DNA of 64,000 nucleotides from Patescibacteria group bacterium. GTDB taxonomy: Bacteria > Patescibacteriota > UBA1384 > XYA2-FULL-43-10. Each line of letters begins with the position of its first letter. Within the stretch, counting starts at the first letter, position 1. Below are positions 44,987-64,000 of this stretch, piece after piece. A program made the position numbers and the translations under genes. The stretch lies in contig JBAYVT010000002.1 of NCBI GenBank assembly GCA_041674405.1, forward strand, positions 87,158 to 151,157, given 5' to 3'. The notes beneath the pieces were generated by a model, which was not told the origin of the DNA, did no database searches, and saw only the letters and a program-made list of their open reading frames with translations.

Positions 44987-45049
44987 ATGAGGGTTCTGTT
45001 CTCTGCCTTGGCATTGCTGGTGCTGGTGGCGCTGGTGGTCGTGGCCTAG
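44987..45049 (+). CDS. 20-aa hydrophobic peptide MRVLFSALALLVLVALVVVA
   Basis: SD AAGGAGGG sits 7 nt upstream of the ATG. A stem-loop (AACGACGGC…GCCGTCGTT, about 45128..45153) and a T-rich tract follow. It resembles a type I toxin or leader peptide. Confidence 0.35.
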   Translation: MRVLFSALALLVLVALVVVA

Positions 45050-45209
45050 GTCCTAGCAAGAGGACCGCGGTGGCTGGATCAACAGCAAGAATCGGATCAT
45101 CCGCCCTGGGCGGATGGCGAGATTAAAACGACGGCTGTCCCTAGCCGTCGTTTCTCGTCGTATGAGATAGTTGCCCAATAGTTTTTAGTTTTAACATTTG
45201 AGTTTTGAG

Positions 45210-48984: not shown

Positions 48985-49205
48985 TTATCTTCCTTTGATT
49001 TCTCAACGATCGATACTACTTTTCTTAAATCAGAAACGCACTTCTTGCAATTTTCCTGTTTGGACAAATTATCAAAATCAGATTTAGATATTAAATAAGC
49101 CACCGGCTTGGAATACCTGACAACCTCAAACACATCTCCGTCCTCAACTTCTTTAAGAACCTTAGAAATGTTATTTTGCAATTCGTTTACGTTGATATTT
49201 TTCAT
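48981..49205 (-). CDS. Phd/YefM-family antitoxin-like small protein (no cognate toxin adjacent)
   Basis: 74 aa. …ISKVLKEVEDGDVFEVVRYSKPVAYLISKSDFDNL… matches the Phd/YefM fold pattern. It overlaps the iscS start by 4 nt. Confidence 0.5.
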   Translation of the reverse strand: MKNINVNELQNNISKVLKEVEDGDVFEVVRYSKPVAYLISKSDFDNLSKQENCKKCVSDLRKVVSIVEKSKEDK

Positions 49206-49294: not shown

Positions 49295-52200
49295 TTAAGA
49301 TTTAGAATTTCTCTTTTCCATCTCAATCTTTTTATTTACGGCAGAAATTTCTTCATCCGTATCAAACCTTACCGGTTTTGGCAGAGTGTAACCTTCCTTG
49401 GTAGCTAAAATTGTGTACCTACCCCGTTTCAAAATCGCCGAAAACTTACCTTTGTCATCAGTTACCGCAGTCTTTACAAGCCTTGTGTTATCTCCGGTCA
49501 TTATCCTAACCAACGTTAGGCCGATAGGCTCGCCCTTATGTCGGTCTACCACCATGCTCCATGGCGACTTTCTTATGACCAGTGAGAAATTGATAACCCA
49601 AAGCAGAATATAGCCGGCAAGGATCAGATAATTTAACAAATTTGGGTCATGAATTAAATTGTTCAAGACCAATATGGTACCGGCCGTAAGTACAACAATC
49701 GAAGCATAATTGAAGAATCTTTCCATTTTTCTAAGCCAACCCAAGATTGCATGAATACCAGAAAGGCTTTTGCCATTTATACTCATTATGATCGTCGGCA
49801 CCAAAAATCCTTTGGTATAGCTATCAATCTCATATATTTTCCCTGTGTCAAAATCATAATATTGATCCGGTTTTGGTGCGAGCTGGTACTTGTCTTTCTT
49901 CGCGATGATTTTGTATTTGCCCGGAGGTTCGGCGAATCCGTACACGCCTGATTTATCGGTGGTTGTTGTCTCAATAACCCTTTCTGTGCCATCTTCGCCT
50001 ACTTTAATCAAGCTAACCATCGCTCCAGAAAGCGGCAAACCGGTTCCATCCTCGAGCACTTGGCCCCATTTTTTGCGTTTCTTTTTAACCGTACCGAAAG
50101 ATAGAATGGAATAAACAATTATATGAATGACTTCCTTGAGTGAGAATAAAGTTATTAAGTTTGTTGCGGGTGCCAATCCGGCGACAACTACTGCCATGCC
50201 CAGAGCTGCTGCGGCAGTCACTGGCGGAGCAGCCTCTTTTGAGATACCAACAGCTGCATAAACTTTTTCTATTCCCCCTGCAACAATATCGATTGAAACC
50301 GCCACATCTTCGACGCCGCCGACAATGCCACCAATAATAACTTCACCGATTGTTTCTTTTCGTACATTTACTGACGCAGCAGCCTTCACATCACCGAATG
50401 AAGCTTGAACGGTGTTTTCAAATGAGCCAACTTCCTTACCTGCGGTGAATAATCCGGTTTGGTCAATCTCCCCGCCACCATTCATAACCGACCACACGAT
50501 AATTGCTGTTGGAATTTCTGAATCATCTGAGGCAAAAGCTTTTGCACTAAACTGCACGGAGTCTTCAACTTTTATTTTCGCACTTGTCGGTGAAATGATA
50601 ATGTATGATGCAGTTTTTTCCGGATTTCCCAGAGTTGTCACCTCAGACGCAGTAGAAAAATCAGTTTCAACGTTGCTATTATTTCTTGCCTTAAGCCTAT
50701 AAGCATAATTCGTAGAAGCTGCAAGGCCTGTGTTTATAAATCCGTCGCTTCCACCCCAGTCGGCATACAATTGCCAATCGGGACTATCGGAAAATGCCCC
50801 ATCGGAATGCCTGACATACTTACCTGCGGTGTCATTGTAAATCGCATATCGTGTGTTAGCTGGGTTGCCGTTTTGGTTAATCGCAATTTTTACTGATGAC
50901 TCGGAAACTACTGAAAGAATTGGGGCATCTGGTGTGTTCGCAAGAGTATAAGATGTAGCAAAATTTGACTTTTCCGTTCCTTTCCTATTGGTCACGGTAA
51001 CTTGGCGAGTATATGCCGTATTCGGAGCAAGAGATTGTTCTAGCCAGGACGAGGCAGAAGCTGCAAGTGTTCCCGAGAGCGGATTGCCAGCGGCATCTAA
51101 CACTGCCCAACTGGTGTGATCATCGTCGGTATTTGACCAAACCCAATTAATCTGGCTGGTAACAATGTCTGTTCCCCTGAAATCTGTAGAGGGTGTAGGC
51201 CCAAGGCAATTCGCCGTTGTGAAATTTATGATTGCAGAATAATTCCCCGCGCCATTCTGGTTTGACGTTGCGGACACCTTGGCGTAATACTTTGTTTTTC
51301 TTGCAAGGCCCGATAAAGAAGTGGCTGTTGTGCTGATATCCGAAATTGTGCCTTTATTTGAAGCTCCGGAATCCGTTCCGTACGAAAGAGTATATTTATC
51401 CGCGCCCTCTGGCGCAATCCATGTCAGGTTCGCCGAAGTTCTGCAAACGGCATTTGCTTCTAGGCTCGCTGGAGCAGCTGGCGGAGTGACTTTTGCCGAA
51501 GATGGAGAATAAGTTGTGTCGGTATTGTCCCCATTTCTTGCTTTGGCCTTGATCCAATACTGGGTATTTGGATCAAGATTAGCCAATGTATATGATGTAC
51601 TTGTCTGCCAGGACATGCCGGCGGGATCGGTAAAATCCGTGCCATTTATTGAATATTGGATCCAATAGTTTGTTCCTGATGGATTCAAACTTGGGCTAAT
51701 TGTTCCTGTTACGAAATATGCCCCCGCCACCGTTGAAACCGTCGGCATATTGGCAAGCGTGTACTTTGGAGATGAATAGGCGCTTGTTGAGTTGCCGGCG
51801 TCATTAAACGCAACAACTTTAGCACAATATTGTGTATTTATATCCTTACCATCAACGTCTTGCGAGGTTTCCCCGGCACCAGTCGTATAGTCGGGAGAAT
51901 CTGGATAAGAAGCCTGTGAACAATCAGAATTCGGAGTGGTAGAAATATAAACCTTGAATCCGGTTTCATCAGATGAGTTGTCGTCCCAAGTCACTTGGAA
52001 AGAATCGTTTTGGATGGTGCCTATTGCTGCATTAGTTGGCGCACTCGGCGCTGTAACACAAGAGCCGGTGGGAGAAATATTCCAATCGGTATTACTTCCC
52101 CCATCCGTAGAATAAGTAGCACAGAAAGAGGCACCCGAATTGGTAGAATTTGAGATGGTGGCGTACGAAATAGTTGCGGTGGCCGGGTTAATATTCCAGC

Positions 52201-55200
52201 CACCAGAACCACCAGACCTCTTAAGAACTACATGGCTTCCCGAAGTTCCGGTTACCGTCCATGTGCCAGATATCGTTTGGGTCGAGCCCGCAGAAAAGGA
52301 TAAGGTTTTGCCTGCAGTAGCGGCAGTGAGGTTATTAAAAGTCGTATCTCCCTCTATCAAGGAGTCACCAGTTAGCGTAACTGTACCGCTCCCAGGAGTG
52401 AAGATACCGCCTGCATGGTTCCAACCGCCAGATACACTCATGGTGGATGGAGCACTGAAGCTAGCATTACCGTTTAAGATGAAATTACCAATGTTCATCG
52501 AAGGGTTATTTGTGATTCCATCAACATCGGTCTGGTTGGTTCCATCACCAATTGTAAGATTGTTAGTAACACCAAAGCTACCGGAAGATAGAGTCAAAGT
52601 TTTGTTTCCAACAAAGCTCTGCCAGATAAAACCGGTCATATCGCCAAAAGAGTGATAAGGACCTGAACCAACATTATAGGTACCAATGACGGCACCAGTC
52701 GAGCCGTTAAGCTTTGTTATGGTGTTGCCGCCAATGCTCGTTACCCATACATTGCCGTCGCCATCAATTCCCGGATGGTCGCCATTGCCGATCGAATAAG
52801 TTCCGATTACTGCACCAGTCGAGCCGTTAACTTTGTAGACCGTTCCGCTATTAACAACCCAGACATTGCCGCTGCCATCAACTGCCAGATTAGCACCAGG
52901 AACCGAGTAGATATCAATGACAGCGCCGGTCGAACCGTTAAGCTTGGTAATGCCAATATCGCCGTCGCTAGCCGTCCAGACATTCCCATCACCGTCGACT
53001 GCTATGCTAAAAGGAGCGCCGTTAACCGAATAAGTGCCGATCAGTGCACCAGTTGAGCTGTCAAGTTTAGTAACGTTACCACTTCCGTGATTGCAAATCC
53101 AAACATTGCCACTACGATCAGCCGCCACTCCCGAAGGACTAGTACCCGTTGAATATGTGCCCATGACTGCACCAGTCGAGCCATTAACCTTATTAATATG
53201 GCTGCTATCGTAGGGGACCCAGACATTGCCAGCATTATCAACGCCCGGGTTACCACCACCGACCGCATAAGTGCCGATCAGTGCGCCGGTCGAACCATTG
53301 AGTTTAGTAACGTTGCCGCTGTAAGGATTGCCGACCCAGACATTGCCACTGCCATCAACTGCCACACCATAAGGACCAGTACCCACCGCGTAAGTTCCAA
53401 TGACGGCACCAGTTGAACTGTTAAGTTTGGTTATATTGTTGCTACCGCTATTAGTCACCCAAACATACGGTGTTACCGCTGGATCCAGCAATTCTAGGTT
53501 ATAATAATTTGCCGCCGTAATGTTTGTGTTAGAAGAAGCACGATATATAAAGGTAGAAGTCGAAGCAGTAAATGTACCCGTTTTAACAAACGGCGTGCCC
53601 GAACCGGTCAAAGTTATTGTCCGATTTGAAGCATCGAAGGTACCAGCATTGATCGTCAGTATGTTTGTAGTTGTGATATCCCCGGCTGCAGTGAAAGTCG
53701 TTCCCGCATGATCAAGGTAAAGATTGTAGTAAGTGGTCGCCGTAATATTAGTTGCCAATGCTCCGGTATACTTGAGGGTTGATGTGCCCTCTTGGAAAGT
53801 TCCGGTTACTACCAATGGCGTTCCTGGCGCGGCCAAAGTAATCGTTCTGGAGGATGCAGCAAATGTGCCGGCATTGATGGTAAGGACTCCATTGATTGTG
53901 ATATTTCCGGCAGCAGTAAAGGTTGTGCCGGTATGGTCTGCAGCGTAGAGGTTGCAATAGGTAATAGCATTAATGTTTGTTGCGCTTGTTCCTTGGAATT
54001 TGACTGTCGATGTACTTTCGGTAAATGTGCCGCTGATGGATAGTGGATCACCTGATTCTGTCAAAACTAAGGTAGTATTATCCAGATTGACAACAGCAGT
54101 TGCCGGGATTTTAAGATTTGGGATAGTGGAGGTGGGAGCAGATGATGAATTAGGTCTCCAGGTATCAGTGCCTATGACATAGAGTATCTGGGAGGTTAGA
54201 GTTGCTTGATTGTAGGGCATAGCTAGGTCATTGGTTGCATTACCAATATCAAAGAGGATATCAGCATCAGACGAAACTGAACCATCGTATTGTGATAAAT
54301 CGGTATTGGATAGTGTTTGGGCAGTACCATTACCGACGACCAAATGCTGCTCAAAGAGAGTAACTCCAGTAATATCTCCCGATGTGTACTTGGTAACAGC
54401 ATTGGCTCGATGGGATTCAGTCGCGCCATCGATGAATACCGTAATTACATCACCGGCAGAGGGTTCGGTAACGCCAGAAATCGTCCAGGAACCAGAAGCA
54501 GTGGTGCCTGTAGCTGCATCCAAGGTGCCATTGATCGCTACCTTGACCGTCTCACCATCAGCACAAGCGGTTGATTCATCATACTGCTTACAAGTGCCGG
54601 AGATAGAGAAGGATGAACAGCCACTTGTTACAGTTGGAGCAGGAAGGGTACCATTGAACGAGGTCCAAGTCCCAGTCGTTGGCAAGACAGTGGGAGCACC
54701 GGCACTACCCCAGTCCACATAAGCCGACTGATCAGCAGGCGCAAGAAGTTTGCTGGTGTCCGACAACAGGTACCAACTACTGTCCCATGGATCTACTGCC
54801 AAAACCCTATTACTTGTATTGGTGTAATAAGGATTACTCCTAGCATCTACACTCGCATAAGTATACGACCCATTATAGCTTGAATCGCCCGCTCCAGAAA
54901 AAGTATACGACGAACATGCGGAGCATGATCCGGTTAAACTAATATTCCAGCCGGTATTTCCCCCGCCGTCAACTGAGTAAGTCGCACAGAAACTACCTGT
55001 ATTACTAGACTTAGAAACATTGGCGTAGGATATTGCAACATTATTACTTGCAGATAAATTCCAGTTGGCACCGCCCGATGGAGCTAAAGTAATTAAGTTA
55101 CCGGAAGTCCCAGCAATATTAATTGCATAATTGAAATTATAGTTTGAACCCGAGTTGAAAGTTAGGGTTGAGGGCGCAGTTGTGTTGGTAAATGTACGCG

Positions 55201-58200
55201 TGACCGACGTTGCCCCAGTGAAGGTGAAATTTGTATTAGCATGCTCAGCCGTAAGGTTGTAATAAGTTACTGGTGTAATATTTGTTGCGGAAGAACCTGT
55301 ATATTTTATCGTTGAAGTCGAGTAAGTAAATGTACCTGTGGCTACGAAAGGTGTACCTGATCCAGACAAAGTGATGGTTTTATTTGATGCATTAAATGTG
55401 CCGGCATTTATTGTCAAAACATTGTTTGCGGTGATGTCGCCCGCCGCAGTGTAGGTTTGGCCAGCTTTATCGATGTAAAGATTGTAATAGGTCGCAGAAG
55501 TTACATTAACCGGACCTGTACCTGTGTATTTTACAGTTGAAGTAGAAGCGGTGAATGTTCCGGTTTTAACAAACGGCATGCTAGTTCCAGATAAAGTAAT
55601 TGTCTTATTTGATGCATCAAAGGTTCCGGCATTGATGGTAAAAACACCAGTTCCGTTTGAACCAGTTGAGATATCACCGGCTGCTGTAAAAGTTGTTCCT
55701 GCGTGATCTAAATAAAGATTATTATAGGTAGTTGATGCAATATTAGTCGCAGAAGCGCCTGTGTATTTGACTGTGCCAGTCATACACTGAAATGTACCGT
55801 TGATCACAAACGGCGTACCAGAACCGGAAAGGGTGATGGTACCTGTCGGCGAATCATTAAATGTACCAGCATTAACGGTGAAAACATTTGTTGATGTAAT
55901 ATCCCCTGCTGCGCTAAAGATGGTCCCTGCACGATCTAAATAAAGATTGTAATAGGTAGTCGCTGTAATATTCGTTGCCAACGAGCCAGTATATTTAACT
56001 GTGGATGTAGAAGGTGTAAAAACGACATTATTTACAAAAGGAGTACCTGATCCAGACAAGGTAATAGTTTTATTGGACGCATCGAAAATCGAGTCATTGG
56101 TCAAAACATTAGTGACATTTATATCGCCCATGGCTGTAGATACTGCTGTGGTTACTAAGTGGAGGTTGTAATAGGTGGTAGAGGCAATGTTTGTTGCCGC
56201 TGCGCCGTAATATTCTACGGTTGAAGTTGATGCCGTAAAAGTACCAGTAACAACAAATGGCGTTCCCGTTGACATGAATGTAATAGTCTTATTAGAGGCA
56301 TCAAAGGTGCCAGCATTGATGGTAAAAATATTTTCCACCTTGATATTTCCAGCCGCAGTAAATGTAGTACCTGCATGGTCCAGATACAGATTATAATAAC
56401 CAGGAACCATTCCCGAACCCATTGCAGTTACGTTTGTCGCCGAAGCACCGGTATATTTGATCGTTGAAGTTGAAGATTGAAACGTTCCGTTATTAACAAA
56501 TGGCGTGCCCGAACCAGATAATGTGATTGTTTTATTGGATGCATTAAATTCACCAGTGGTAATGCTTAAGACACCAGATACATCAATATCGTTATTTGCT
56601 GTCCAAATCCCCGAGCCATCATTGAAGGTCAAATTATTAAAGGCCGATCCTCCCGTCATATTTCCGGAAAGAGTTTTATCAGCTCCACCCGTCTGAAAAG
56701 TAACGGTTCCGGAATTGTTGTCAAATGTTCCGCTTGAATGATTCCAATTTCCATTAACAATAAAATTATTAGATGATGCGGGCGCACTTAATGACCCGCC
56801 CGAAATTGTGACATTACCAGCACTAATATCATGTGCCCCAGCGGTTAAGGTACCGGATGAAACAAGGAGATTGTTTGTAACATCAATATTGCTGGAAAGA
56901 GACCAGGCTGAAGATGGGATCGAATAATAAATCGTGCCTCTTACATAATTTATAATTGCATTTGAAACAGATGGAGTTATTTTCTTAATTGTCATCGCAA
57001 CGCCAAAGCTTGAATCGTTAACATCATTTGGCGTCCAAGTTAATCCCCACAGATTTCCATCCCCACCAAACGGAACATAATCCTCTGTCCCCGACCATAA
57101 TGCATCCGCAGATTGATTGGTGCCCCCAATGGTACCAGACTTAATGATTTCAATAATATCATCGGAAACAGGAGGCGAACTACCCATCCTTTTTGCTTCC
57201 ATTTTAATACCTGTAACCGTTGCATTGGTTGGAATATTAAAACCAAAATTTGTCGCTTTTAGATAATTAGAGCGTTTTCCTTGGGGAATACCAACAATTC
57301 TCGCATAATTTCCATCATCAGCAGTGATATCTTCGGGAGTTGACCAAGGACCATCTCCATAGCTTGCATCATTGGTTCCTGTTCCACATCCCAATGTGGA
57401 ACTAGTACTTCCCCCGCCGTTCTCACCTGCGATTGTAAGATTATAAAATTTCTGCCCAGAACCCAATATGATTGAGAAGTCTCCGCTTGTCCCATTAAAA
57501 TTTATTGTAGAATTTCCTTCATTGAAAGTAACATTTGAAGAATCCCAATCACCTGCAATATTAATTATGTGGCTTCCAGGGCTAAAGCTACCTGACGTCA
57601 TAGTAAAACCATCCGCAATCGTAATATCTCCAGCTGCAATAAAGTCTGTATTCGCATGGTTGATGACTAAATTATTATACGTCACGGAAGCCAAATTTGT
57701 ATCTGATGATCCTTCGTAGGAAATTGTTGAAGTTGACGGAGTAAAGGTACCGGTCACAACAAACGGGGTTCCACTCCCTGATAAAGTAATGGTTTTATTG
57801 GAAGCATCAAATGTGCCTGCATTGATAGTAAGGACTCCAGAAACGGTAATGTTCCCTGCTGCAGCAAAGGTAGTACCAGTCTTGTCTGCCGCGTAGAGAT
57901 TGTAATAAGAAAGAGCATTAACATTCGTAGCGCCTGATCCCTGGAATTTAATGGTGGAAGTGCCAATTGTGAAGGTGCCGGTGATAGAAAGTGGTGTGCC
58001 GGAGGCGGTTAATGCTAGTGTTGTGCCGGTAAGGTTGACGATGGCTGATGTCGGAATTACAAGGTTAGAAATGGTGGATGTTGGAGCATCAGTAGCAGCC
58101 GGTTGCCAAGTGTTGGAAGCCAAAACATAAAGCTTCTGGTCGGTATCTGTTTGGGTGCCTGACTCGGGCAGTGTTAAGTCTTTGGTTGTGGCATTAACTT

Positions 58201-61200
58201 CAAAGAAGATATCTTCATCAGACGAGACAGAGTTATCGTATTTCTCCATATCAGCATTTGAAAGAGTTTGGTTATCAGCTGAACCGATGGATAAATGTTT
58301 TTCATAAAGTGCTATGCCGGATACATTACCGGAGACATACTTTGTCACTGCATTTGCTTCATTGGCATCAGCAACACCATCGACAAAGATGGTGATAGTG
58401 TCGCCAGCCGATGGGGCTGTTACTCCGGTGATAGACCAGGACCCGCTTGAAGTTGTACCGGTAGCCGCATCGAGGCTCCCATTGATTGCTACTTTGATCG
58501 TTTCGCTGTCAGCACAATTCGAGGATTCGTCATATTGTTTGCAGGTACCGGAGATGGAGATGCTGGCCGGCGGAAATGCCCAATGATGGTTATTTCCACC
58601 GTCATATCCGCCAGTCGTGGCATTTACCAAGCTTCCTCCAGTTGCATCGGAATCGGTGACATTAACATAAGAAGCAGGTGGGCTATCCTGGACAACATTA
58701 AAATTCCAATGGTTGGTAGGTGTAGATGAAACCATAAATATTCTAGTACCTACTGCTCCGCCATTGATATCAAGGCCCATGATTGAATAAGTTGATCCAG
58801 CATGGAATGTAAGTTTAGAGGAAGGGGTAGTATCAGTAAAGACCCCATTGATAGTTGCCGAATCTGCAAAATAAACACCATTTGCCGACGCATTAGTAAT
58901 AGTAATGCTGTTAAAATCATGATTTCCATTTGTTCCACCAGCAGTGATGGTCTGTAAATCACTACCATCCAAGGTTAGTGTTCCGGTACCAGAAGTAAAG
59001 ATGCCAGTGGCCGAATTCGTATAATCGCCTGCAAGATAAAATGCAGCCGTACTTGAAGCCGTGAGAGTATTACCAGCGTCAATAATAACATCTCCATCAA
59101 CGTTAACTATGGGATCGTTTGTTTCGAATGACAATACGGCAGTTAATGCGCCTCCTCCAACATGCAAATTATTTGAAACATTTAAAGTGCCTGCCTGAAC
59201 ATTATGGGTACCTGAAAAATTTTCACGCGCTATCTGAAGGTTATAATATGTAGTCGCGGTTACATTTACAGCGGCGCCGACTGGGTCCGGGCAATCATAA
59301 AATAATGTTGAATTGTTGGCAGTGAAAGTGCCGTTGATCACAAAAGGAGTGTTAGTTCCTAATAGTGTAATTGTTTTATTTGAAGCGTCGAATTCACCTG
59401 CATTAATTGTTAAAAGATTTGAAACAGTCATATCCCCAGCCGCGGTAAAAGTCGACCCAGTTCGATCAAGATAAAGATTGTAGAATGTCGTCGCCGTCAC
59501 ATTTGTCGCAGATGAACCCTTATACTGAACGGTAGATGTGCCCTCCTGAAAAGTAGCGTTTATATTCACAAAAGGCGTGCCTGAGCCATTCAAAACAATT
59601 GTTTTATCGGAGGCATTAAAGGTTCCTACATCTAGCGTCAAAACGCTGCCAACGGTAATATTTCCAGCTGCGGTAAAGGTGGTACCAGTATGAACCAAAT
59701 ATAGATTATAATACGTCGCACTAGTTACATTGGTAGCGCTCGATCCGGCATACTTTATGGTTGAAGTAGCTTCTTGAAAAGTACCATTTACAACAAAAGG
59801 TGTACCAGAACCATATAGATAAACTGTCTTATCCGATCCGTTATATATCGTCCCGGTCTGAATAGTGAAAACTCCGTAGACCGAGAACGAGCCGGAAGAA
59901 AGCGGAGTAAATGTCGTGCCCGAATGGTCGAGGATTAGATTGTGGAACCCGAGTAACGCAACGTCAGTTGCTGACGCACTCTGATATGTGACGGTTGAAG
60001 TGTCGTAATTGAAGGTACTGCCCGTCTCCATTCTAAGAGGCCTCGACGAACTTTGTCCTGAGCCAGTAATTACTAAAGAATTATTATCCAATGTCATCGT
60101 AGACGATGCTTCGGCATATGATTTCGGCACAGTTGATGTGGTTCCACCACCGGATGCAGGCCGCCATGTATTATTTGCCTTAATTATAATCTTTTGGTCT
60201 GCATCAGTTTGGGTTCCGACTGCCGGCAGGGTTAGATTGTTTGATCCGTCAATTTCGAAAAAGATATCTTCATCGGAGGAGACGGAATTATCGTATTTAG
60301 AGATATCGTTGTTCGATAATGTTTGATTATCGTCAGAACCTAGATACAAATGCTTTTCGTAAAGGCTAATTCCTGTAATATTGCCCGAACCATCGTATTT
60401 GGTAACAGCATTCGCTTCGTTACCGTCAGCCACTCCATCGATAAATACGGTAATTGTGTCCCCAGAAGCAGGTGCTGTAACACCGCTTATGCTCCACGAA
60501 CCTCCGGATGTGGTTCCGGTTTGGGCTTGAATAGTACCATTTACCGCAACTTTTACAGTCTCTGAATCAGCGGCATTTGTCGATTCGTCATATTGCTTAG
60601 CAGTCCCTGAGATTAAAATTGTGGCAGGCCCACCTCCGCCTTCAGAAATAATAACCCCCGGCTCGACTTCTCCTGAAGCATCCCAGTCGTAAGGAGTCGG
60701 GTCACTAACTGGATCAGCATTAAACCAAGTATACCCAGGGTAAAAACTACCCAAAGTTGATGAAACAGCCCAAGATCCTCCCATATTTCCACTAAACCAA
60801 AGATAAGAGTTATTTTCATTTTTATAGACAGGGTACGGCGACGAACCGATATCTCCAAAGTATTGATCGTTATATGCAAACGTACCATTTGCATTCGTAT
60901 TACCAGCATTTGTGCCTGTATATGTATGGCCCGGATCTCCTCCCGGCGTTACGCCGCTTGGCGCCGGAGCGGTTCCCAGATTGGCCGTCCAGCTATTGCT
61001 TCCGGGAAGCGCGCCCTCCATAAGATAATAGTGTACATCCATCATCGCATCATTAAGAACGTCGCTAAGCATATATGCTCCGCCCCCGTCCCAGTACAAG
61101 TACATATTATTAGCGTTTTTCCAATAGTCACTTCCATAGGCATCCGTTCCGCCGTAAGAGTATTCGCCGTTATAATTGGCATCTCCTGCTCCCGCAACAG

Positions 61201-61471
61201 TCCATGTGGTTGTATTAGCAGCTAGAGCTTTAGGAGGCTTTTCAAAATTGATTGATGGGTTGACCATAACAAACCCAAGAACCGAAATCGCCACAATATA
61301 TAAGGTCAAGAACATCCAATGAAAGGGTGACGAAGATCCCGAAAGATGCCACTTGTAATACCAACCGAATTTCATGCGAAGAGCATTGTGCCATGGAGAA
61401 AATCGGGAGAATGTGGTTCTCGTGCTTTTTTGTACTTTCATTATTTCCCTGTCAAGCTCCACAGTTGTCAT
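49295..61471 (-). CDS. giant (4058-aa) envelope protein: N-terminal signal anchor, ~50-aa beta-solenoid-like repeats, NHL/YVTN-like beta-propeller, FN3-like and Big_2-like domains, C-terminal multi-TM anchor with two CarbopepD_reg/transthyretin-like domains
   Basis: It is a single uninterrupted ORF. There is an N-terminal TM (WMFLTLYIVAISVLGFVMV). More than 20 repeats of …TITLSGSGTPFV..GTF..STSTIKYTG..ATN.T..TYYNLYLDHAGTTFTAAGDIT… are present. About 9 propeller blades of …KLNGSTGAVIGTY.VG.GP.G.AVDGSGNVWV… span roughly nt 52630-53450. FN3-like units occupy about 50370-52080. The C-terminal ~330 aa hold three hydrophobic helices flanking …DKSGVYGF…GKYKIIAKKDKY… and …DDKGKFSAILKRGRYTILATKEGY…. 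Confidence 0.85.
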   Translation of the reverse strand: MTTVELDREIMKVQKSTRTTFSRFSPWHNALRMKFGWYYKWHLSGSSSPFHWMFLTLYIVAISVLGFVMVNPSINFEKPPKALAANTTTWTVAGAGDANYNGEYSYGGTDAYGSDYWKNANNMYLYWDGGGAYMLSDVLNDAMMDVHYYLMEGALPGSNSWTANLGTAPAPSGVTPGGDPGHTYTGTNAGNTNANGTFAYNDQYFGDIGSSPYPVYKNENNSYLWFSGNMGGSWAVSSTLGSFYPGYTWFNADPVSDPTPYDWDASGEVEPGVIISEGGGGPATILISGTAKQYDESTNAADSETVKVAVNGTIQAQTGTTSGGSWSISGVTAPASGDTITVFIDGVADGNEANAVTKYDGSGNITGISLYEKHLYLGSDDNQTLSNNDISKYDNSVSSDEDIFFEIDGSNNLTLPAVGTQTDADQKIIIKANNTWRPASGGGTTSTVPKSYAEASSTMTLDNNSLVITGSGQSSSRPLRMETGSTFNYDTSTVTYQSASATDVALLGFHNLILDHSGTTFTPLSSGSFSVYGVFTIQTGTIYNGSDKTVYLYGSGTPFVVNGTFQEATSTIKYAGSSATNVTSATYYNLYLVHTGTTFTAAGNITVGSVLTLDVGTFNASDKTIVLNGSGTPFVNINATFQEGTSTVQYKGSSATNVTATTFYNLYLDRTGSTFTAAGDMTVSNLLTINAGEFDASNKTITLLGTNTPFVINGTFTANNSTLFYDCPDPVGAAVNVTATTYYNLQIARENFSGTHNVQAGTLNVSNNLHVGGGALTAVLSFETNDPIVNVDGDVIIDAGNTLTASSTAAFYLAGDYTNSATGIFTSGTGTLTLDGSDLQTITAGGTNGNHDFNSITITNASANGVYFADSATINGVFTDTTPSSKLTFHAGSTYSIMGLDINGGAVGTRIFMVSSTPTNHWNFNVVQDSPPASYVNVTDSDATGGSLVNATTGGYDGGNNHHWAFPPASISISGTCKQYDESSNCADSETIKVAINGSLDAATGTTSSGSWSITGVTAPSAGDTITIFVDGVADANEANAVTKYVSGNVSGIALYEKHLSIGSADNQTLSNADMEKYDNSVSSDEDIFFEVNATTKDLTLPESGTQTDTDQKLYVLASNTWQPAATDAPTSTISNLVIPTSAIVNLTGTTLALTASGTPLSITGTFTIGTSTIKFQGSGATNVNALSYYNLYAADKTGTTFAAAGNITVSGVLTINAGTFDASNKTITLSGSGTPFVVTGTFTPSTSTISYEGSSDTNLASVTYNNLVINHANTDFIAAGDITIADGFTMTSGSFSPGSHIINIAGDWDSSNVTFNEGNSTINFNGTSGDFSIILGSGQKFYNLTIAGENGGGSTSSTLGCGTGTNDASYGDGPWSTPEDITADDGNYARIVGIPQGKRSNYLKATNFGFNIPTNATVTGIKMEAKRMGSSPPVSDDIIEIIKSGTIGGTNQSADALWSGTEDYVPFGGDGNLWGLTWTPNDVNDSSFGVAMTIKKITPSVSNAIINYVRGTIYYSIPSSAWSLSSNIDVTNNLLVSSGTLTAGAHDISAGNVTISGGSLSAPASSNNFIVNGNWNHSSGTFDNNSGTVTFQTGGADKTLSGNMTGGSAFNNLTFNDGSGIWTANNDIDVSGVLSITTGEFNASNKTITLSGSGTPFVNNGTFQSSTSTIKYTGASATNVTAMGSGMVPGYYNLYLDHAGTTFTAAGNIKVENIFTINAGTFDASNKTITFMSTGTPFVVTGTFTASTSTVEYYGAAATNIASTTYYNLHLVTTAVSTAMGDINVTNVLTNDSIFDASNKTITLSGSGTPFVNNVVFTPSTSTVKYTGSLATNITATTYYNLYLDRAGTIFSAAGDITSTNVFTVNAGTFNDSPTGTITLSGSGTPFVINGTFQCMTGTVKYTGASATNIASTTYNNLYLDHAGTTFTAAGDISTGSNGTGVFTINAGTFDASNKTITLSGTSMPFVKTGTFTASTSTVKYTGTGPVNVTSATYYNLYIDKAGQTYTAAGDITANNVLTINAGTFNASNKTITLSGSGTPFVATGTFTYSTSTIKYTGSSATNITPVTYYNLTAEHANTNFTFTGATSVTRTFTNTTAPSTLTFNSGSNYNFNYAINIAGTSGNLITLAPSGGANWNLSASNNVAISYANVSKSSNTGSFCATYSVDGGGNTGWNISLTGSCSACSSYTFSGAGDSSYNGSYTYASVDARSNPYYTNTSNRVLAVDPWDSSWYLLSDTSKLLAPADQSAYVDWGSAGAPTVLPTTGTWTSFNGTLPAPTVTSGCSSFSISGTCKQYDESTACADGETVKVAINGTLDAATGTTASGSWTISGVTEPSAGDVITVFIDGATESHRANAVTKYTSGDITGVTLFEQHLVVGNGTAQTLSNTDLSQYDGSVSSDADILFDIGNATNDLAMPYNQATLTSQILYVIGTDTWRPNSSSAPTSTIPNLKIPATAVVNLDNTTLVLTESGDPLSISGTFTESTSTVKFQGTSATNINAITYCNLYAADHTGTTFTAAGNITINGVLTINAGTFAASSRTITLAAPGTPLVVTGTFQEGTSTLKYTGALATNITATTYYNLYLDHAGTTFTAAGDITTTNILTINAGTFDASNRTITLTGSGTPFVKTGTFTASTSTFIYRASSNTNITAANYYNLELLDPAVTPYVWVTNSGSNNITKLNSSTGAVIGTYAVGTGPYGVAVDGSGNVWVGNPYSGNVTKLNGSTGALIGTYAVGGGNPGVDNAGNVWVPYDSSHINKVNGSTGAVMGTYSTGTSPSGVAADRSGNVWICNHGSGNVTKLDSSTGALIGTYSVNGAPFSIAVDGDGNVWTASDGDIGITKLNGSTGAVIDIYSVPGANLAVDGSGNVWVVNSGTVYKVNGSTGAVIGTYSIGNGDHPGIDGDGNVWVTSIGGNTITKLNGSTGAVIGTYNVGSGPYHSFGDMTGFIWQSFVGNKTLTLSSGSFGVTNNLTIGDGTNQTDVDGITNNPSMNIGNFILNGNASFSAPSTMSVSGGWNHAGGIFTPGSGTVTLTGDSLIEGDTTFNNLTAATAGKTLSFSAGSTQTISGTWTVTGTSGSHVVLKRSGGSGGWNINPATATISYATISNSTNSGASFCATYSTDGGSNTDWNISPTGSCVTAPSAPTNAAIGTIQNDSFQVTWDDNSSDETGFKVYISTTPNSDCSQASYPDSPDYTTGAGETSQDVDGKDINTQYCAKVVAFNDAGNSTSAYSSPKYTLANMPTVSTVAGAYFVTGTISPSLNPSGTNYWIQYSINGTDFTDPAGMSWQTSTSYTLANLDPNTQYWIKAKARNGDNTDTTYSPSSAKVTPPAAPASLEANAVCRTSANLTWIAPEGADKYTLSYGTDSGASNKGTISDISTTATSLSGLARKTKYYAKVSATSNQNGAGNYSAIINFTTANCLGPTPSTDFRGTDIVTSQINWVWSNTDDDHTSWAVLDAAGNPLSGTLAASASSWLEQSLAPNTAYTRQVTVTNRKGTEKSNFATSYTLANTPDAPILSVVSESSVKIAINQNGNPANTRYAIYNDTAGKYVRHSDGAFSDSPDWQLYADWGGSDGFINTGLAASTNYAYRLKARNNSNVETDFSTASEVTTLGNPEKTASYIIISPTSAKIKVEDSVQFSAKAFASDDSEIPTAIIVWSVMNGGGEIDQTGLFTAGKEVGSFENTVQASFGDVKAAASVNVRKETIGEVIIGGIVGGVEDVAVSIDIVAGGIEKVYAAVGISKEAAPPVTAAAALGMAVVVAGLAPATNLITLFSLKEVIHIIVYSILSFGTVKKKRKKWGQVLEDGTGLPLSGAMVSLIKVGEDGTERVIETTTTDKSGVYGFAEPPGKYKIIAKKDKYQLAPKPDQYYDFDTGKIYEIDSYTKGFLVPTIIMSINGKSLSGIHAILGWLRKMERFFNYASIVVLTAGTILVLNNLIHDPNLLNYLILAGYILLWVINFSLVIRKSPWSMVVDRHKGEPIGLTLVRIMTGDNTRLVKTAVTDDKGKFSAILKRGRYTILATKEGYTLPKPVRFDTDEEISAVNKKIEMEKRNSKS
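52630..53450 (-). repeat. coding repeats for ~9-bladed NHL/YVTN-like beta-propeller within the giant gene (approximate bounds)
   Basis: About 40-aa blade periodicity is visible in the protein and in the plus-strand shadow ORFs (52775..53056 and 53198..53416). Confidence 0.6.
54140..54720 (-). repeat. ~180-aa module, copy 3 of 3 (…ISGTCKQYDES…VTKY…EKHL…QTLSN…DNSVSSDEDIFF…), approximate bounds
   Basis: Nucleotide-level similarity to the copies near 58090 and 60170. The antisense shadow ORFs share ISKRISASDETEPSY/ISKKISSSEETELSY. Confidence 0.55.
55200..56700 (-). repeat. main tandem array of ~150-nt (~50-aa) coding repeats within the giant gene (approximate bounds; smaller arrays near 53480-54050, 57480-58020, 59180-59900)
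   Basis: Recurrent nucleotide strings appear (e.g. GGTGTACCTGATCCAGACAAAGTGATGGTTTTATTTGATGC at about 55365 versus GGAGTACCTGATCCAGACAAGGTAATAGTTTTATTGGACGC at about 56040). Repeated antisense shadow ORFs read …VPVLTNGVP..KVIV…SKVPALMV…SPAAVKVVPA. Confidence 0.6.
58090..58640 (-). repeat. ~180-aa module, copy 2 of 3 (approximate bounds)
   Basis: The shadow ORF 58314..58586 parallels 54231..54722. Confidence 0.5.
60170..60650 (-). repeat. ~180-aa module, copy 1 of 3 (approximate bounds)
   Basis: The shadow ORF 60009..60326 ends …ISKKISSSEETELSY…, as in the other copies. Confidence 0.5.
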
Positions 61472-61486
61472 TCCGTTTTATATTTA

Positions 61487-64000
61487 TTAGGTAATTGATT
61501 TTTTCTTTAGTTCCAACTTTTTACGAAGTGCAGCCATATTATCTTGATTGGCAAATTCCACCGGATGATCAAGCTCATATCCCTCCTTCGCTGCAAAAAT
61601 GTTATATTTGCCTTTCCTTAACATAGCAGAGAATTTTCCCTTTTGGTCCGAAACAGTAGTTCTGACTAGTTTGTGGCTGTCTGAATTCATCACCCGAATC
61701 AAGGTTAGAGGGACCGGCTCTCCGGTATTCGATTCAGCCACAATACTCCATGGCGAATTTCTAATGATGAAAGATGCGTTGATAATCCAAAGCAAAAAGT
61801 ATCCAACAACAATAACGTAATTTAAAAGAGTGTGCTCGTGTATGACGTTATTGGCCGCTAATATTGACCCGAGTGCAAGTAATACGAATGAAAAATATAC
61901 AAAATATCTTTCTAATTTCCTAAACGATGCGACTAATTTTGCGATATTACCGAGCTTCTTTCCGTTGACGTTCATAATAATTGTGGGAACAATCAAACCT
62001 TCTTCGTAGCTCAAAACATTAAATATCTTTTTGGGGTCAAAGTTATAAAATTGGTCTTCAATAGATGCAACCGTGTGTTTTTCTTTGCTCGCAATGACAC
62101 GATATTTGCCAGGTCCAGCAGCAAAACCATATACCCCGTCTTTATCAGTAAATGACGATTCTATGACTTTCTCAGTATCAGCATCGTCCACCTTAACCAG
62201 GCTTACCTGAGCCAGATATAAGGGCATTCCTGTTCCATTTTCAATTACTCTTCCCCATTTTTTCTTCTTTCGTTTTAAAGTTCCAGCCGAAAGAATCGAG
62301 TAAGACAAAACATGATATATTTCATTCAGAGAAAACAGCGATGATGCTGTGGCCATCGGAGTCATTGCAGCTGCCATTCCAGCAGCACCCAGCGCTGCAG
62401 CTGAGGTTATTGGGGTCGCTGCTTGTTTAGATATCCCGACCGCTTGGTATATTTTTTCAATTTGTCCTGCAGTGGTATTAATGACACCAGAAATTAACGT
62501 CGCACTCTTAACAATTCCATCGACTAAATTATTAATGATTGTATCGTTTTTTATAATAACGGTGGCGAAAGATTGGCTCTCACCCACAGAGGCTTCAATT
62601 GTATTATTATATGTTCCAGTATCTGGTCCCGCAGTGAAAAATCCATTTTTATCGATTGCTCCGCCTCCATTTACCACTGACCAAACAATATTGACGTTGG
62701 ATATTTCTTTGTTATCTAAAGTGAATGCTCGGGCTTTGAACTGAAGGGTTTCATTTGGCCCGATTGTGGCGGTTACCGGATCAATGGCGATTGAAGCAAT
62801 ATTTGAAACAGGGCTATCTCCACCTTTTGGACTATCTGGAAGTGTTAAATTCTCTCCGGGCGATGAGAAAGAAGTTTCTATGCTATCTCCATTTTTTGCC
62901 TTAACCAGATAATCATATTGCGTGCCGACCAAAAGATTGTAATTAATAATGCCCGAACTTCCCCCCCACACGTTTCGCGTTTGCCAAACGGCGCTATTGC
63001 CCAGGGATCCATCAGCTTGCACATACTTTCCGGAAGTTTGATTATAGATAGCGTATTGGGTCGAAGGCGGATTGTTATTTGAGTTGATGATGATCTTTAA
63101 AGAATTACTAGATAATGCATTGACCATCGGTGCATTTGGTTGATTAGCCAGCGTGTAGAAAGGAGCAGTATATGATCCAGGCGAGTCATTACCAGAATTG
63201 GTTGCCGTAATTCTGGCGCAATATTGAGTATTAACACTTTTTCCTGAGATAAATTGCGAGGTCGTATTTGCACCCAAAGCATAATCCGGGTAATCCGGAT
63301 ATGAGGCAAACTCGCAATTATCACTTGTGGCAGTTGAAATAAAGATATTAAAGCCAGTTTCGCTTGAAGAGTTATCGATCCAATTCAGAGTGAAGAAAGT
63401 TGTGTCCACCCCTACAACCGAAGCCCCTGTGGGGGCAGCAGGGGTCGCTTCGCAGATCGTAGATGAACCAATCTGCCAGCCAATATTACCCCCCACATCA
63501 ATAGAATAGTTTGCACAGAATTGGATTCCTGAATTAGTTGATTGAGAAATTGAAGCGTGAGAAACTACGGCTTTCGCCGGATTTATTATCCAATTTCCTG
63601 AACTGCCAGACCCTCGTAGATTAATATTGTGGCCACTAGACCCAGAAATACTCCATGTGCCGGTAATTGTTTGGGTTGAGCCGGCTGAAAAAGATATGGT
63701 CTTTCCACCCGTAACGGCCGTGAGATTGTTGAAAGTGGTATTTCCCTGAATCAGAGAATCGCCATTCAAAGTTACTGTCCCGTTGCCGGGAGTGAACGTG
63801 CCACCATTATTGTTCCAGCCGCCCGAAAGATTAATGTTTGAGGGAGCGTTAAAGTTCGCATTACTCTTTAATGTAAAATTTCCGCCTATGTTAATTGTTG
63901 GATTATTTGCCAATCCGTCAACAGTGGTTTGATTAGCGCCATCACCAATCTGAAAATCGTTAGCGATATTAAACGTACCATTTGATAAAGTTAAAACTTT
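61487..64000 (-). CDS. second giant envelope protein, paralogue of 49295..61471 (C-terminal >830 aa; gene runs off the window end)
   Basis: The reading frame is open to the window edge; the track's 63913 boundary is an internal TTG. It aligns with the first protein (…NNPTINIGGNF…TFNNLTAVTGGKTISFSAGSTQTITGTW… versus …NNPSMNIGNF…TFNNLTAATAGKTLSFSAGSTQTISGTW…). It has the same FN3-like, Big_2-like and C-terminal multi-TM plus CarbopepD_reg-like anchor. It stops 15 nt before the start of the downstream giant gene. Confidence 0.85.
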   Translation of the reverse strand, partial: KVLTLSNGTFNIANDFQIGDGANQTTVDGLANNPTINIGGNFTLKSNANFNAPSNINLSGGWNNNGGTFTPGNGTVTLNGDSLIQGNTTFNNLTAVTGGKTISFSAGSTQTITGTWSISGSSGHNINLRGSGSSGNWIINPAKAVVSHASISQSTNSGIQFCANYSIDVGGNIGWQIGSSTICEATPAAPTGASVVGVDTTFFTLNWIDNSSSETGFNIFISTATSDNCEFASYPDYPDYALGANTTSQFISGKSVNTQYCARITATNSGNDSPGSYTAPFYTLANQPNAPMVNALSSNSLKIIINSNNNPPSTQYAIYNQTSGKYVQADGSLGNSAVWQTRNVWGGSSGIINYNLLVGTQYDYLVKAKNGDSIETSFSSPGENLTLPDSPKGGDSPVSNIASIAIDPVTATIGPNETLQFKARAFTLDNKEISNVNIVWSVVNGGGAIDKNGFFTAGPDTGTYNNTIEASVGESQSFATVIIKNDTIINNLVDGIVKSATLISGVINTTAGQIEKIYQAVGISKQAATPITSAAALGAAGMAAAMTPMATASSLFSLNEIYHVLSYSILSAGTLKRKKKKWGRVIENGTGMPLYLAQVSLVKVDDADTEKVIESSFTDKDGVYGFAAGPGKYRVIASKEKHTVASIEDQFYNFDPKKIFNVLSYEEGLIVPTIIMNVNGKKLGNIAKLVASFRKLERYFVYFSFVLLALGSILAANNVIHEHTLLNYVIVVGYFLLWIINASFIIRNSPWSIVAESNTGEPVPLTLIRVMNSDSHKLVRTTVSDQKGKFSAMLRKGKYNIFAAKEGYELDHPVEFANQDNMAALRKKLELKKKSIT

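Follow-up and report, generated by a model that had tools for sequence, protein, structure and literature searches.

To our knowledge, the way in which ultra-small CPR cells recognize and hold a host is little understood past type IV pili, and the giant CPR surface proteins that are often invoked have never been sorted into families. One described case is Vampirococcus lugosii, a CPR predator of the Absconditabacteria, whose giant membrane proteins (1392-4163 aa) are thought to serve host recognition and attachment (PMC8080830). Protein families that show enrichment among CPR bacteria are, for the most part, membrane or extracellular proteins lacking an annotation (PMC6744442). Giant proteins of the Omnitrophota exceed 30,000 aa; they have many TM regions and in most cases also SecA DEAD-like domains of a divergent type (bioRxiv 10.1101/2023.11.21.568195).

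Two giant proteins, A and B, encoded in a window of 64,000 nucleotides (the whole stretch of DNA that was analyzed) from an uncultured Patescibacteria bacterium, were compared with these systems. They resemble the Vampirococcus giants, which come from the same superphylum, in size and predicted membrane location, and the latter carry domains for interaction and adhesion, of propeller, PKD, fibronectin and integrin-like type (PMC8080830); in either case the function has been inferred. Neither a TM/β-sandwich module nor a WYYxWH leader such as those of A is described in the Vampirococcus paper. With the Omnitrophota proteins A shares a giant gene in an ultra-small host-dependent bacterium, TM and adhesion-type domains and mostly unannotated sequence. 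It differs from them in its length of 4058 aa, in hydrophobic segments that are confined to its two termini and in the lack of a SecA_DEAD match in Pfam.

A second group of comparable systems comprises the LPXTG-type MSCRAMMs and pilins of Gram-positive bacteria, surface display proteins of monoderm type, which likewise combine an export signal, distal binding domains, an Ig-like/CnaB stalk and a hydrophobic stretch with a basic tail; in A, the fold of both C-terminal domains matches that of CnaB2 and SdrD B. In contrast to LPXTG proteins, A lacks a C-terminal LPXTG motif and a sortase context, and its β-sandwiches lie past the first helix and the basic cluster, are split by a TM hairpin and are possibly cytoplasmic, an arrangement that argues for anchoring by membrane insertion rather than wall linkage. 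The only LPxTG sequence of A, LPTTG, is internal (aa 2263) and lies some 1800 aa ahead of the C-terminus, and B has none, in agreement with the initial annotation. The long arrays, presumably rod-like and with a high content of Thr, Ser, Asn and Gly, recall Ag43, pertactin, FHA, HMW1 and EtpA, which are nominally the nearest structures, at non-significant scores. Such β-helical adhesins of the autotransporter or TPS type need an outer membrane and a β-barrel or TpsB partner, and CPR bacteria have neither the membrane nor such partners (PMC6744442). No autotransporter or TPS domain was detected in A with Pfam or NCBIfam, and its C-terminus is predicted to be made of α-helical TM segments and β-sandwiches. 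The families CarboxypepD_reg (PF13620), CarbopepD_reg_2 (PF13715) and NOMO1-like (PF22902) each describe a single domain of ~80 aa only, and none of them covers the order TM, basic cluster, domain, TM hairpin, domain. In searches of Pfam, NCBIfam and PDB sequences, none of the named adhesin, S-layer or autotransporter families fitted, and Pfam revealed no SLH, choline-binding or autotransporter domain (E<=0.01 for SLH and choline-binding), as had been claimed at the outset.

The features of the locus are compiled in Table 1. Two tandem minus-strand ORFs 15 nt apart had been annotated, the downstream one intact over 12.2 kb, and both statements hold, the spacer measuring 15 nt and gene A containing no internal stop codon. 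Co-transcription of A and B is likely, because the minus strand carries no terminator-like site in the spacer (61472-61486). Gene B is stop-free as far as the window edge, where it is indeed open; its length, first given as more than 830 aa, rises to at least 2437 aa on an identical ENA contig (L010, 2..7315), the end of which cuts B there too.

Table 1. Features of genes A and B in the window (residues refer to protein A).
Feature	Residues	Window position	Strand	Remarks
Gene A		49295..61471	-	intact ORF, 4058 aa; 4055 aa with GTG start at 61462
B-A spacer		61472..61486	-	15 nt, B stop codon to A ATG
Gene B, 3' 2.5 kb		61487..64000	-	837 codons visible, open at window edge
Leader and predicted signal-anchor	5-78	61238..61459	-	leader HMM, A at E = 1.5e-30
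N-terminal globular region	88-205	60857..61210	-	duplicated at aa 2187-2284 (54620-54913)
Triplicated module, copy 1	288-453	60113..60610	-	motif ISGTxKQYDE...NTWRP, self-blast
75-aa array 1	454-767	59171..60112	-	4 copies, HMM
Triplicated module, copy 2	973-1136	58064-58555	-	self-blast, motif
75-aa array 2	1137-1354	57410..58063	-	3 copies, last weak, HMM
Unique region	1355-1634	56570..57409	-	no detectable family (self-blast, Pfam)
75-aa array 3	1635-2116	55124..56569	-	6 copies; HMM, autocorrelation, DNA spacing
Triplicated module, copy 3	2290-2452	54116-54604	-	self-blast, motif
75-aa array 4	2453-2679	53435..54115	-	3 copies, HMM
NHL/YVTN-type β-propeller	2670-2965	52577..53464	-	seven blades, phmmer vs PDB
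Cap segment	2966-3140	52052..52576	-	end motif FCATYS..GG.NT.WNI; self-blast, motif
FN3-like stalk	3141-3620	50612..52051	-	five units by motif, Pfam fn3
Putative Ig-like unit	3626-3706	50354..50596	-	sub-threshold Big_2
C-terminal module of A	3735-4054	49310..50269	-	
Module part: GISKE..P motif	within 3735-4054			
Module part: Ala-rich weak TM	3750-3775			
Module part: short amphipathic helix	3778-3794			
Module part: KKKRKK basic cluster	3795-3802			
Module part: β-sandwich 1 (modeled)	3803-3898			
Module part: TM hairpin	3919-3940 and 3945-3966			
Module part: β-sandwich 2 (modeled)	3972-4053			
C-terminal module of B		61490..62449	-	50% identity to that of A, HMM 737 bits

The exact 4055-aa product of A, read from the GTG at codon 4, is present in ENA assembly ERZ27247358 (contig k141_1736407). 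Window positions 39295-64000, which include all of A, are 100% identical to the ENA contig, and a Logan contig agrees at 100% identity along 15.3 kb; these assemblies possibly stem from the same sequencing data and so confirm the assembly, not an independent population. Exact window proteins are deposited at NCBI as MFA7244020-MFA7244065, from a contig of 155.9 kb (MAG, Patescibacteria group bacterium). No exact database record was found for A as a 4058-aa (ATG start) or 4048-aa (Met11 start) protein, and Met11 was ruled out as the start codon, since the leader is already conserved from residue 5. With a 12.2-kb frame matched residue for residue in another public assembly, the ORF of gene A is far beyond chance. 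The highly repetitive nature of gene A, the break of the Logan contig near A aa 1055 and the end of the ENA contig inside B could still be taken to mean that the giant ORFs are artefacts of repeat mis-assembly, chimeras or decaying pseudogenes. This explanation is extremely unlikely in view of the stop-free 12.2 kb, of the sequence across the whole of A, which other assemblers give with 100% identity, and of the conserved termini that match large families and are retained by both paralogues. Moreover, the DNA-level repeats of gene A are only 60-85% identical among copies, so that short reads can place them. As the repeats do not exceed 85% identity and the other assemblies agree completely, a collapse or pseudogene status, which the initial annotation had considered, is unlikely and was not borne out.

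Two blastp alignments of A with B, one of 594 aa at 47.5% identity and one of 391 aa at 49.1%, together cover all of the visible B. The last 368 aa are 50% identical in both proteins, with the same architecture and without large gaps, and the gap at A 3334-3469 is explained by FN3-like units, of which B has two and A five. A and B are hence classified by their sequences as tandem paralogues, and the clear paralogy with identical C-terminal architecture noted initially is confirmed. Among the family loci examined, the tandem arrangement was present at the A/B locus only; tandem duplication as a family trait was rejected, since the other loci lack it.

A and B are probably Sec-exported, membrane-tethered giant surface binding proteins of a Patescibacteria (CPR) bacterium. 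Export via Sec would be directed by a lineage-specific extended leader and signal-anchor (WYYxWH). The ectodomain would be built from rod-like 75-aa arrays, probably β-solenoids, interspersed with the triplicated module, and beyond the arrays a seven-bladed NHL/YVTN propeller and then an FN3/Ig-like stalk would follow. A conserved module of ~320 aa may hold each protein in the cytoplasmic membrane; in its predicted order, a weakly hydrophobic stop-transfer helix and a poly-basic cluster precede a β-sandwich, which a tight TM hairpin separates from a second one. Leader and module would represent a conserved frame into which Patescibacteria may have inserted unrelated binding ectodomains many times. 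The presumed role is binding of another cell or a surface polymer, which would suit an episymbiotic way of life, and the diverged pair could provide two specificities. The domain types found in A (NHL/YVTN propeller, FN3, Ig-like, probable β-helix) are typical of extracellular binding proteins, and the earlier picture of giant tandem paralogues from a small-genome CPR bacterium with such domain types stands. We infer export, surface display, membrane topology and an adhesion function for A and B; cell-cell attachment in particular is suggested by domain content and by the literature on other CPR bacteria.

Structure models and hydrophobicity profiles indicate that the C-terminal ~320 aa of A are a polytopic unit with two folded β-sandwiches. 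Of the C-terminal anchor annotated initially, the membrane part is thus retained, and the notion of a simple anchor is replaced. Both domains are modeled as transthyretin/CnaB-like, that is, as seven-stranded β-sandwiches which superimpose on carboxypeptidase D, CnaB or transthyretin domains, as expected for the Transthyretin-like/CarboxypepD_reg class. Their structural relatives include CnaB pilins, SdrD B domains, a carboxypeptidase D domain, the SusC NTE, NOMO and SlaB. No Pfam or NCBIfam model covers the C-terminal module of A. With a median ΔG sum of +3.3, the hydrophobicity of the module's first TM is only marginal, and the polarity of the second short helix (best 19-mer ΔG sum, median +8.0) is too high for a membrane span. 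Averaged across the family, the stretch behind the first helix pair has a net charge of +4.4 and the one ahead of TM2 of +2.3; the hairpin loop of 5 aa is close to neutral (~0), and a mean of +1.6 follows TM3. On topogenic rules, the balance tips toward a cytoplasmic location of both β-sandwiches, in which case anchoring would not be the module's only task. Every structural relative of the two domains, however, is extracytoplasmic, which argues against the placement derived from the charge rule.

The module defines a family whose members end in an Ala-rich helix and a short helix, then a basic cluster with WG as its last residues, β-sandwich 1, the TM hairpin, SPW[GS] and β-sandwich 2. A search of cluster representatives retrieved 3527 matches at E<=1e-3, 1783 at E<=1e-10 and 51 at E<=1e-30. 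The whole module, defined as a match from profile position 75 or lower through 335 or higher, was present in at least 112 of the 150 best matches, nearly always at the end of the protein, in host proteins of 326-5960 aa. It stands nearly alone in proteins of 326-450 aa, and in members of 326-366 aa only 22-57 residues precede it; the shorter members have classical cleavable signal peptides. Elsewhere the module is joined to unrelated ectodomains with Calx-beta, InlB B-repeats, NHL, a Rax2 propeller, fn3, PKD or GLUG. Source names include Patescibacteria group, Berkelbacteria, Kerfeldbacteria and Saccharibacteria, and all source-named full-module relatives are Patescibacteria, except one distant 2.5-kb contig. 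Genome contigs searched with a four-sequence module alignment yielded five loci; a 'Gammaproteobacteria' locus (L005) was discounted as a member, as only one β-sandwich matches. The low-complexity pattern K[KR]K[RK]KKWG led to no confirmed locus in genome contigs. Accessory genes conserved beside module members were not found, the neighbors being unrelated housekeeping genes, and a conserved neighborhood was rejected, with LysM/CHAP and MacB/FtsX neighbors recurring twice each only.

A and B are accordingly placed, by profile similarity, in an unnamed Patescibacteria C-terminal module family, and no description of the module or of the WYYxWH leader was found in the literature. The initial annotation had seen a domain mosaic that matches no named adhesin family and the most plausible candidate for an undescribed system; instead, the C-terminal part sits in a large recurrent family, and the ectodomain recurs in CPR bacteria. 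What appears to be new is that the A/B pair, on sequence grounds, forms part of a large, recurrent and unnamed architecture of leader, swappable ectodomain and polytopic module. Leader and module profiles offer two handles for cataloguing the surface proteins of any Patescibacteria genome, and the frame lets ectodomain turnover be compared with host range. If the module merely anchors, this would be a useful annotation gain and no new mechanism.

A different role for the module, or for its first helix and basic cluster, would be that of a sorting signal, with cleavage near G-I-x-x-E-x-x-P and an ectodomain that is freed or attached to the wall. A conserved [IL]G[IV]xxExxP indeed lies 8-10 residues ahead of the Ala-rich helix and is followed by a hydrophobic stretch and a strong basic cluster, a tripartite layout that formally resembles LPXTG, PEP-CTERM and PGF-CTERM signals. 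Nevertheless, some 260 conserved residues with two well-folded domains and a TM hairpin extend past the basic cluster, and we know of no sorting signal with ~260 folded residues at this place. The shortest family members imply an independent role for the module, a C-terminal LPXTG is missing and beside the members neither a sortase nor an exosortase or rhomboid gene is conserved, all of which makes the sorting signal decidedly improbable. The short members also suggest the module as a functional core. A bolder, rather doubtful extension of the membrane-tethered reading is that leader and module constitute a Patescibacteria-specific display-and-coupling device, in which a single extracellular loop has grown into interchangeable giant ectodomains and cytoplasmic β-sandwiches pass outside binding to an inside partner. 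If this were true, the module would be the functional core and not a passive anchor, and the coupling route could be signaling, force coupling or localization at the host contact site.

At the other end, A starts with a leader (LDxEIxxIQKSTRT...HNxLRxKFxWYYxWH...H) that belongs to a second family of ~75 aa, defined by LDxEIxxIQKST[RK]T, then HNxLRxKFxWYYxWH, then H and a TM. The hydrophobic segment at aa 50-75 (Kyte-Doolittle 2.33) is preceded by a basic region, consistent with the N-terminal signal anchor proposed initially. A leader HMM gave 27 matches among 231 collected proteins plus A. The leader was present in 12 of the 22 module-family representatives of at least 1500 aa and also in CPR proteins without that C-terminal module, and it has no match in Pfam or NCBIfam. 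By these similarities A is assigned to an unnamed Patescibacteria N-terminal leader family. An uncleaved N-terminal anchor would tether A at both ends, which is odd for an outward-reaching adhesin.

Between the termini, the main repeat of A has a period of 75-76 aa, with autocorrelation peaks at lags 75/76 and ~154 and none at 50, a spacing of 225 nt at the DNA level, and 16 HMM copies in four arrays. This revises the ~50-aa repeat with more than 20 copies that had been reported. The AlphaFold model of array 4 (pLDDT 60-80) contains short periodic strands of 3-4 residues with solenoid-like spacing. The nominal top Foldseek matches of the array model were mostly right-handed β-helix adhesins and tailspikes, none of them significant (E>=0.54), and a sub-period near 22 aa within the 75-aa repeat was weak (z = 4.7 in one array). 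On these models a β-solenoid with about three coils per repeat is plausible. The nominal Foldseek matches also include polygalacturonases, phage tailspikes and a fucoidan lyase, and giant proteins of ultra-small predatory bacteria have been linked to cell-wall degradation (bioRxiv 10.1101/2023.11.21.568195), so that the arrays might be imagined as polysaccharide lyases, hydrolases or tailspike-like depolymerases that digest a host or prey envelope, a role already suggested for the Omnitrophota giants. Such a catalytic function is very unlikely, given that these matches are non-significant (E>0.5) and come from a modest model, that searches of Pfam, NCBIfam and PDB sequences returned no catalytic family, and that neither the SecA-like domains nor the numerous TM regions of the Omnitrophota proteins are present in A.

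The propeller was recognized by phmmer against PDB through the PknD-derived Pizza6 designs (E = 8e-25), the PknD sensor 1RWI (E = 4e-18) and the Methanosarcina surface-layer YVTN protein 1L0Q (E = 1e-16). Its tandem blades of ~40 aa fall within the six to eight that, together with sequence similarity, characterize NHL/YVTN propellers; the NCBIfam YVTN repeat model stayed under its cut-off (21.4 vs 27.85). The propeller itself had been annotated correctly, with ~9 blades in place of the seven counted from S-T-G-A-[VL] motifs and from seven DNA copies 111-123 nt apart. Several FN3-like units had likewise been foreseen, and Pfam fn3 (PF00041) matched three stretches with a score of 60.4 bits, above its cut-off of 25. 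The presumed Big_2-like domain did not reach significance (PF02368, 14.4 bits vs 22.8, E = 0.037), and an Ig-like fold for aa 3626-3706 is plausible.

A set of 52 ectodomain relatives was collected, and the repeat/module ectodomain recurs in proteins of Doudnabacteria, Berkelbacteria, Nomurabacteria and further CPR members. Instead of specific adhesins, A and B might be structural envelope or S-layer-like parts of a regular or fibrous coat. This is improbable, as the ectodomains are wholly different between members and genomes, which is typical of variable binding proteins and unlike lattice-formers. Several different members can also coexist in one genome (L001 and L003 of one MAG), A with its 430 kDa and polytopic anchor is unlike known S-layer proteins, and no SLH or other S-layer family was matched.

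The triplicated module, initially put at ~180 aa, is present in three copies of ~165 aa that are 47-60% identical to one another, and relatives were detected at 15 metagenome loci. AlphaFold models of this module and of the N-terminal region had a pLDDT below 50. The module, aa 88-205 and aa 1355-1634 gave no Pfam match even at E<=1. In self-blast, aa 88-205 are 38% identical to aa 2187-2284 (E = 3e-13), and the cap segment appears again at ~aa 2085-2186 and, more faintly, at 819-925.

Proteins A and B, encoded in tandem on the minus strand, are best read as adhesin-like giant surface proteins that are exported by Sec, tethered to the membrane and built on a frame shared across Patescibacteria. 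All of the visible part of B can be aligned to A by BLASTP (47.5% identity over 594 aa and 49.1% over 391 aa), and the last 368 residues of the two proteins align end to end at 50% identity, which bears out the initial annotation of a pair of giant paralogues with a common C-terminal architecture. The single gap in the BLASTP alignment (A 3334-3469) arises because A has five FN3 units and B two. An ENA contig, which also stops within B, extends B to at least 2437 aa with the frame unfinished, and B is therefore likewise a giant protein. Like A, it combines repeat arrays and a single ISG..YDE module with a seven-bladed propeller, a cap segment and the FN3 units, and an Ig-like unit precedes its C-terminal module. 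The minus strand has no terminator-like site in the spacer between the genes or close to it, so that A and B are likely co-transcribed. Since the leader is conserved from residue 5 onward, the start codon of A is either the ATG at 61471 or the GTG at 61462, and not Met11.

Coordinates of the tandem genes and of the elements of protein A
Feature	Position	Strand	Description
Gene A	49295-61471	minus	single uninterrupted ORF, 4058 codons
A/B spacer	61472-61486		15 nt
Gene B	stop codon 15 nt upstream of A	minus	837 codons without a stop, up to the window edge
Leader of A	aa 5-78; 61238-61459	minus	ahead of the signal-anchor; WYYxWH motif
N-terminal globular region of A	aa 88-205		duplicated at aa 2187-2284
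75-aa repeat arrays of A	aa 454-767, 1137-1354, 1635-2116, 2453-2679		located by HMM
Triplicated module of A	copies start at aa 287, 973, 2290		motif ISGTxKQYDE; each copy runs up to the next array

The giant tandem pair is real. In DNA the repeats are well diverged (identity of at most 77% over at least 100 nt and at most 85% over 41 nt), which makes a short-read collapse unlikely. An exact-product look-up located the MnmA protein of the window also on the ENA contig (137.9 kb), a Logan contig (17.3 kb) and a JGI contig. The ENA contig matches window 39295-64000 at 100% identity and encodes A, taken from the GTG at codon 4 (4055 aa), residue for residue; the Logan contig matches 15.3 kb at the same identity and breaks within A near aa 1055. 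These public assemblies may go back to the same raw data as the window; they validate the assembly, not an independent population.

The C-terminal part of A and B (~320 aa with a weak TM segment, a basic cluster and two β-sandwiches separated by a TM hairpin) is a recurrent module and more than a simple anchor. An exhaustive search of 1.84 billion cluster representatives with a HMMER profile of the last 368 aa of A and B yielded 3527 matches at E<=1e-3, 1783 at E<=1e-10 and 51 at E<=1e-30, the weaker ones including some multi-copy CarboxypepD_reg proteins. The module is complete in 112 of the 150 best matches and nearly always ends at, or a few residues before, the protein C-terminus. Proteins bearing it range from 326 to 5960 aa, and their ectodomains resemble neither that of A nor one another (Calx-beta, InlB B-repeats, NHL, Rax2-type propeller, fn3, PKD, GLUG). 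Where full-module relatives have source names, all but one are CPR (Patescibacteria group, Berkelbacteria, Kerfeldbacteria, Saccharibacteria); the remaining one, a distant member from protein cluster P0060, lies on a 2.5-kb contig labelled Promethearchaeota. A locus in a 'Gammaproteobacteria' MAG was rejected as a full-module relative, as it matches one β-sandwich only. In Pfam and NCBIfam the module has no model, and its bearers are named after a recognised ectodomain, or as 'carboxypeptidase-like regulatory domain-containing' or 'hypothetical'.

Minimal members of 326-366 aa have just 22-57 residues ahead of the module, so the module serves a function in itself, beyond being an appendage of adhesins. 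Averaged over 114 module sequences, the net charge is +4.4 in the 8-residue cluster after the first helix pair, +2.3 before TM2, ~0 in the 5-residue hairpin loop and +1.6 after TM3. A simple Hessa-type hydrophobicity sum, which is approximate, rates the Ala-rich first helix as marginal (median +3.3), the short second helix as not membrane-spanning (+8.0) and TM2 and TM3 as acceptable (+1.5 and +2.0). Most shorter members with at least 96 upstream residues start with a hydrophobic signal segment, in several of them with an AxA-type cleavage site, suggesting that the region ahead of the module is exported. By the positive-inside rule, the ectodomain would lie outside, with the first helix acting as a stop-transfer segment; both β-sandwiches would then be cytoplasmic and the hairpin loop outside. 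A cytoplasmic location of the sandwiches is only moderately favoured, because every one of their structural relatives is extracytoplasmic. Cytoplasmic β-sandwich domains would pose a new, testable question.

At the opposite end, A aa 5-78 (ELDREIMKVQKSTRTTFSRFSPWHNALRMKFGWYYKWHLSGSSSPFHWMFLTLYIVAIS) conform to a ~75-aa leader pattern, LDxEIxxIQKST[RK]T ... HNxLRxKFxWYYxWH ... H, followed by a TM segment. Of the 22 module-bearing representatives with 1500 aa or more, 12 begin with the leader, as do CPR proteins without the C-terminal module, and no Pfam or NCBIfam model exists for it. In position it may be comparable to the extended signal regions (ESPR, YSIRK, KxYKxGKxW) that other giant surface proteins carry. 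If it stays uncleaved, A would be tethered at both ends. No literature description of either the module or the leader was found, and these two unnamed, widely recurrent terminal elements represent a modest but concrete novelty.

The annotated feature thus stands and its general interpretation was reasonable, but its anatomy was partly mis-described. Instead of more than 20 copies of a ~50-aa repeat, BLOSUM autocorrelation of the arrays revealed lags of 75-76 and ~154 and no signal at 50 aa, the DNA copies are spaced by 225 nt, and an HMM built from 12 clear copies detected 16 copies in four arrays of A and 13 in the available part of B. The triplicated module was recovered in three copies of ~165 aa, for which the estimate of ~180 aa was fair. 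Against PDB sequences, phmmer matched the propeller to the Pizza6 proteins, designed from the PknD NHL propeller (E = 8e-25), to PknD (E = 4e-18) and to the YVTN propeller of a Methanosarcina surface-layer protein (E = 1e-16). NHL/YVTN is a solid assignment; the blades number seven and not ~9, as judged from seven STGA[VL] motifs and seven DNA copies 111-123 nt apart. The several FN3-like units are upheld by Pfam fn3 (60.4 bits vs a threshold of 25) and by five motif-defined units, whereas the proposed Big_2-like domain remains below threshold (14.4 vs 22.8 bits). As annotated, A has no C-terminal LPXTG anchor, its sole LPxTG being internal (aa 2263). Pfam at E<=1 gave no match for the N-terminal globular region, the triplicated module, the unique region aa 1355-1634 or the 75-aa repeat. 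An AlphaFold run on A 2200-2700, with only three internal repeat copies, produced an array model of pLDDT 60-80 with short strands at regular spacing and no usable model of the triplicated module. The top Foldseek matches of the array, all at E>=0.54, were mostly right-handed β-helix proteins (Ag43, EtpA, pertactin, HMW1, tailspikes, polygalacturonases), and a solenoid is a best guess rather than an established fold.

A metagenome scan with the triplicated module identified 15 loci (32-57% identity), whose large ORFs of 1456 to >5000 aa contain 75-aa repeats and lack the C-terminal module. A protein search with the N-terminal 1000 aa of B found 52 relatives, with Doudnabacteria, Berkelbacteria, Nomurabacteria and Patescibacteria group among the named sources and no Pfam domain covering their repeats. 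Module-less repeat proteins, leaders without the module and unrelated ectodomains on the module point to independent shuffling of leader, ectodomain cassettes and C-terminal module within the phylum. A unique 'undescribed system' was an overstatement, as C-terminal module and ectodomain recur across Patescibacteria. At one 75-aa-repeat locus, two adjacent large ORFs (L016 1516-11256 and 11219-13993) may be one gene split by a frameshift; at another (L028, 2342-12211), three large ORFs with TM segments at the N-terminus lie in tandem.

The nearest described analogues are the giant membrane proteins of Vampirococcus, for which a role in host attachment has been proposed (PMC8080830); by design logic, Gram-positive CnaB-stalk surface proteins come closest. 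A and B did not classify as LPXTG, autotransporter/TPS, SLH or Omnitrophota-type giant proteins. CPR-enriched protein families are mostly unannotated membrane or extracellular proteins (PMC6744442). Ten window proteins have exact NCBI records (MFA7244020-MFA7244065, on a 155.9-kb contig) from a Patescibacteria group bacterium MAG, which confirms the taxon; the small-genome episymbiotic lifestyle is presumed from knowledge of the phylum.

The neighbourhoods of four other family members contained no conserved partner genes, and one member lies between the ribosomal protein genes L1 and L10. Tandem duplication of a family member was observed at the A/B locus alone. A heliorhodopsin gene (L011 7130-7888) adjoins one member and a LysM+CHAP cell-wall hydrolase gene lies near two (L011 8741-9796, L013 11810-12892), numbers too small for an association. 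The surroundings of A and B are compact and housekeeping (secA, serS, PBP2, mreBC, ftsA, alaS, recG, mnmA, folD, nifU, iscS). Alone between A and iscS lies a 74-aa Phd/YefM-type antitoxin gene (48981-49205, minus; Pfam E = 7e-11), whose end overlaps the iscS start and which has no adjoining toxin partner. The miaA gene (35243-36400), one 385-aa ORF in the window, is split into two gene calls (175 + 163 aa) in the ENA assembly, and a single 7-nt indel within 35203-39295 separates the two sequences; either a frameshift variant or an error in one of the assemblies may account for it. Between recG (41771..43897) and mnmA (45210..46319), 1.3 kb (43900-45200) are devoid of ORFs above 108 aa and have a G+C of ~0.50 vs ~0.42 nearby. 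Rfam gave no family there except a weak ar14 match (E = 0.035). The minus strand of 44000-44950 folds far more stably than its shuffles (-402.7 vs -346.8 +/- 7.4 kcal/mol, z = -7.6), and the region is a candidate for a large structured non-coding RNA.
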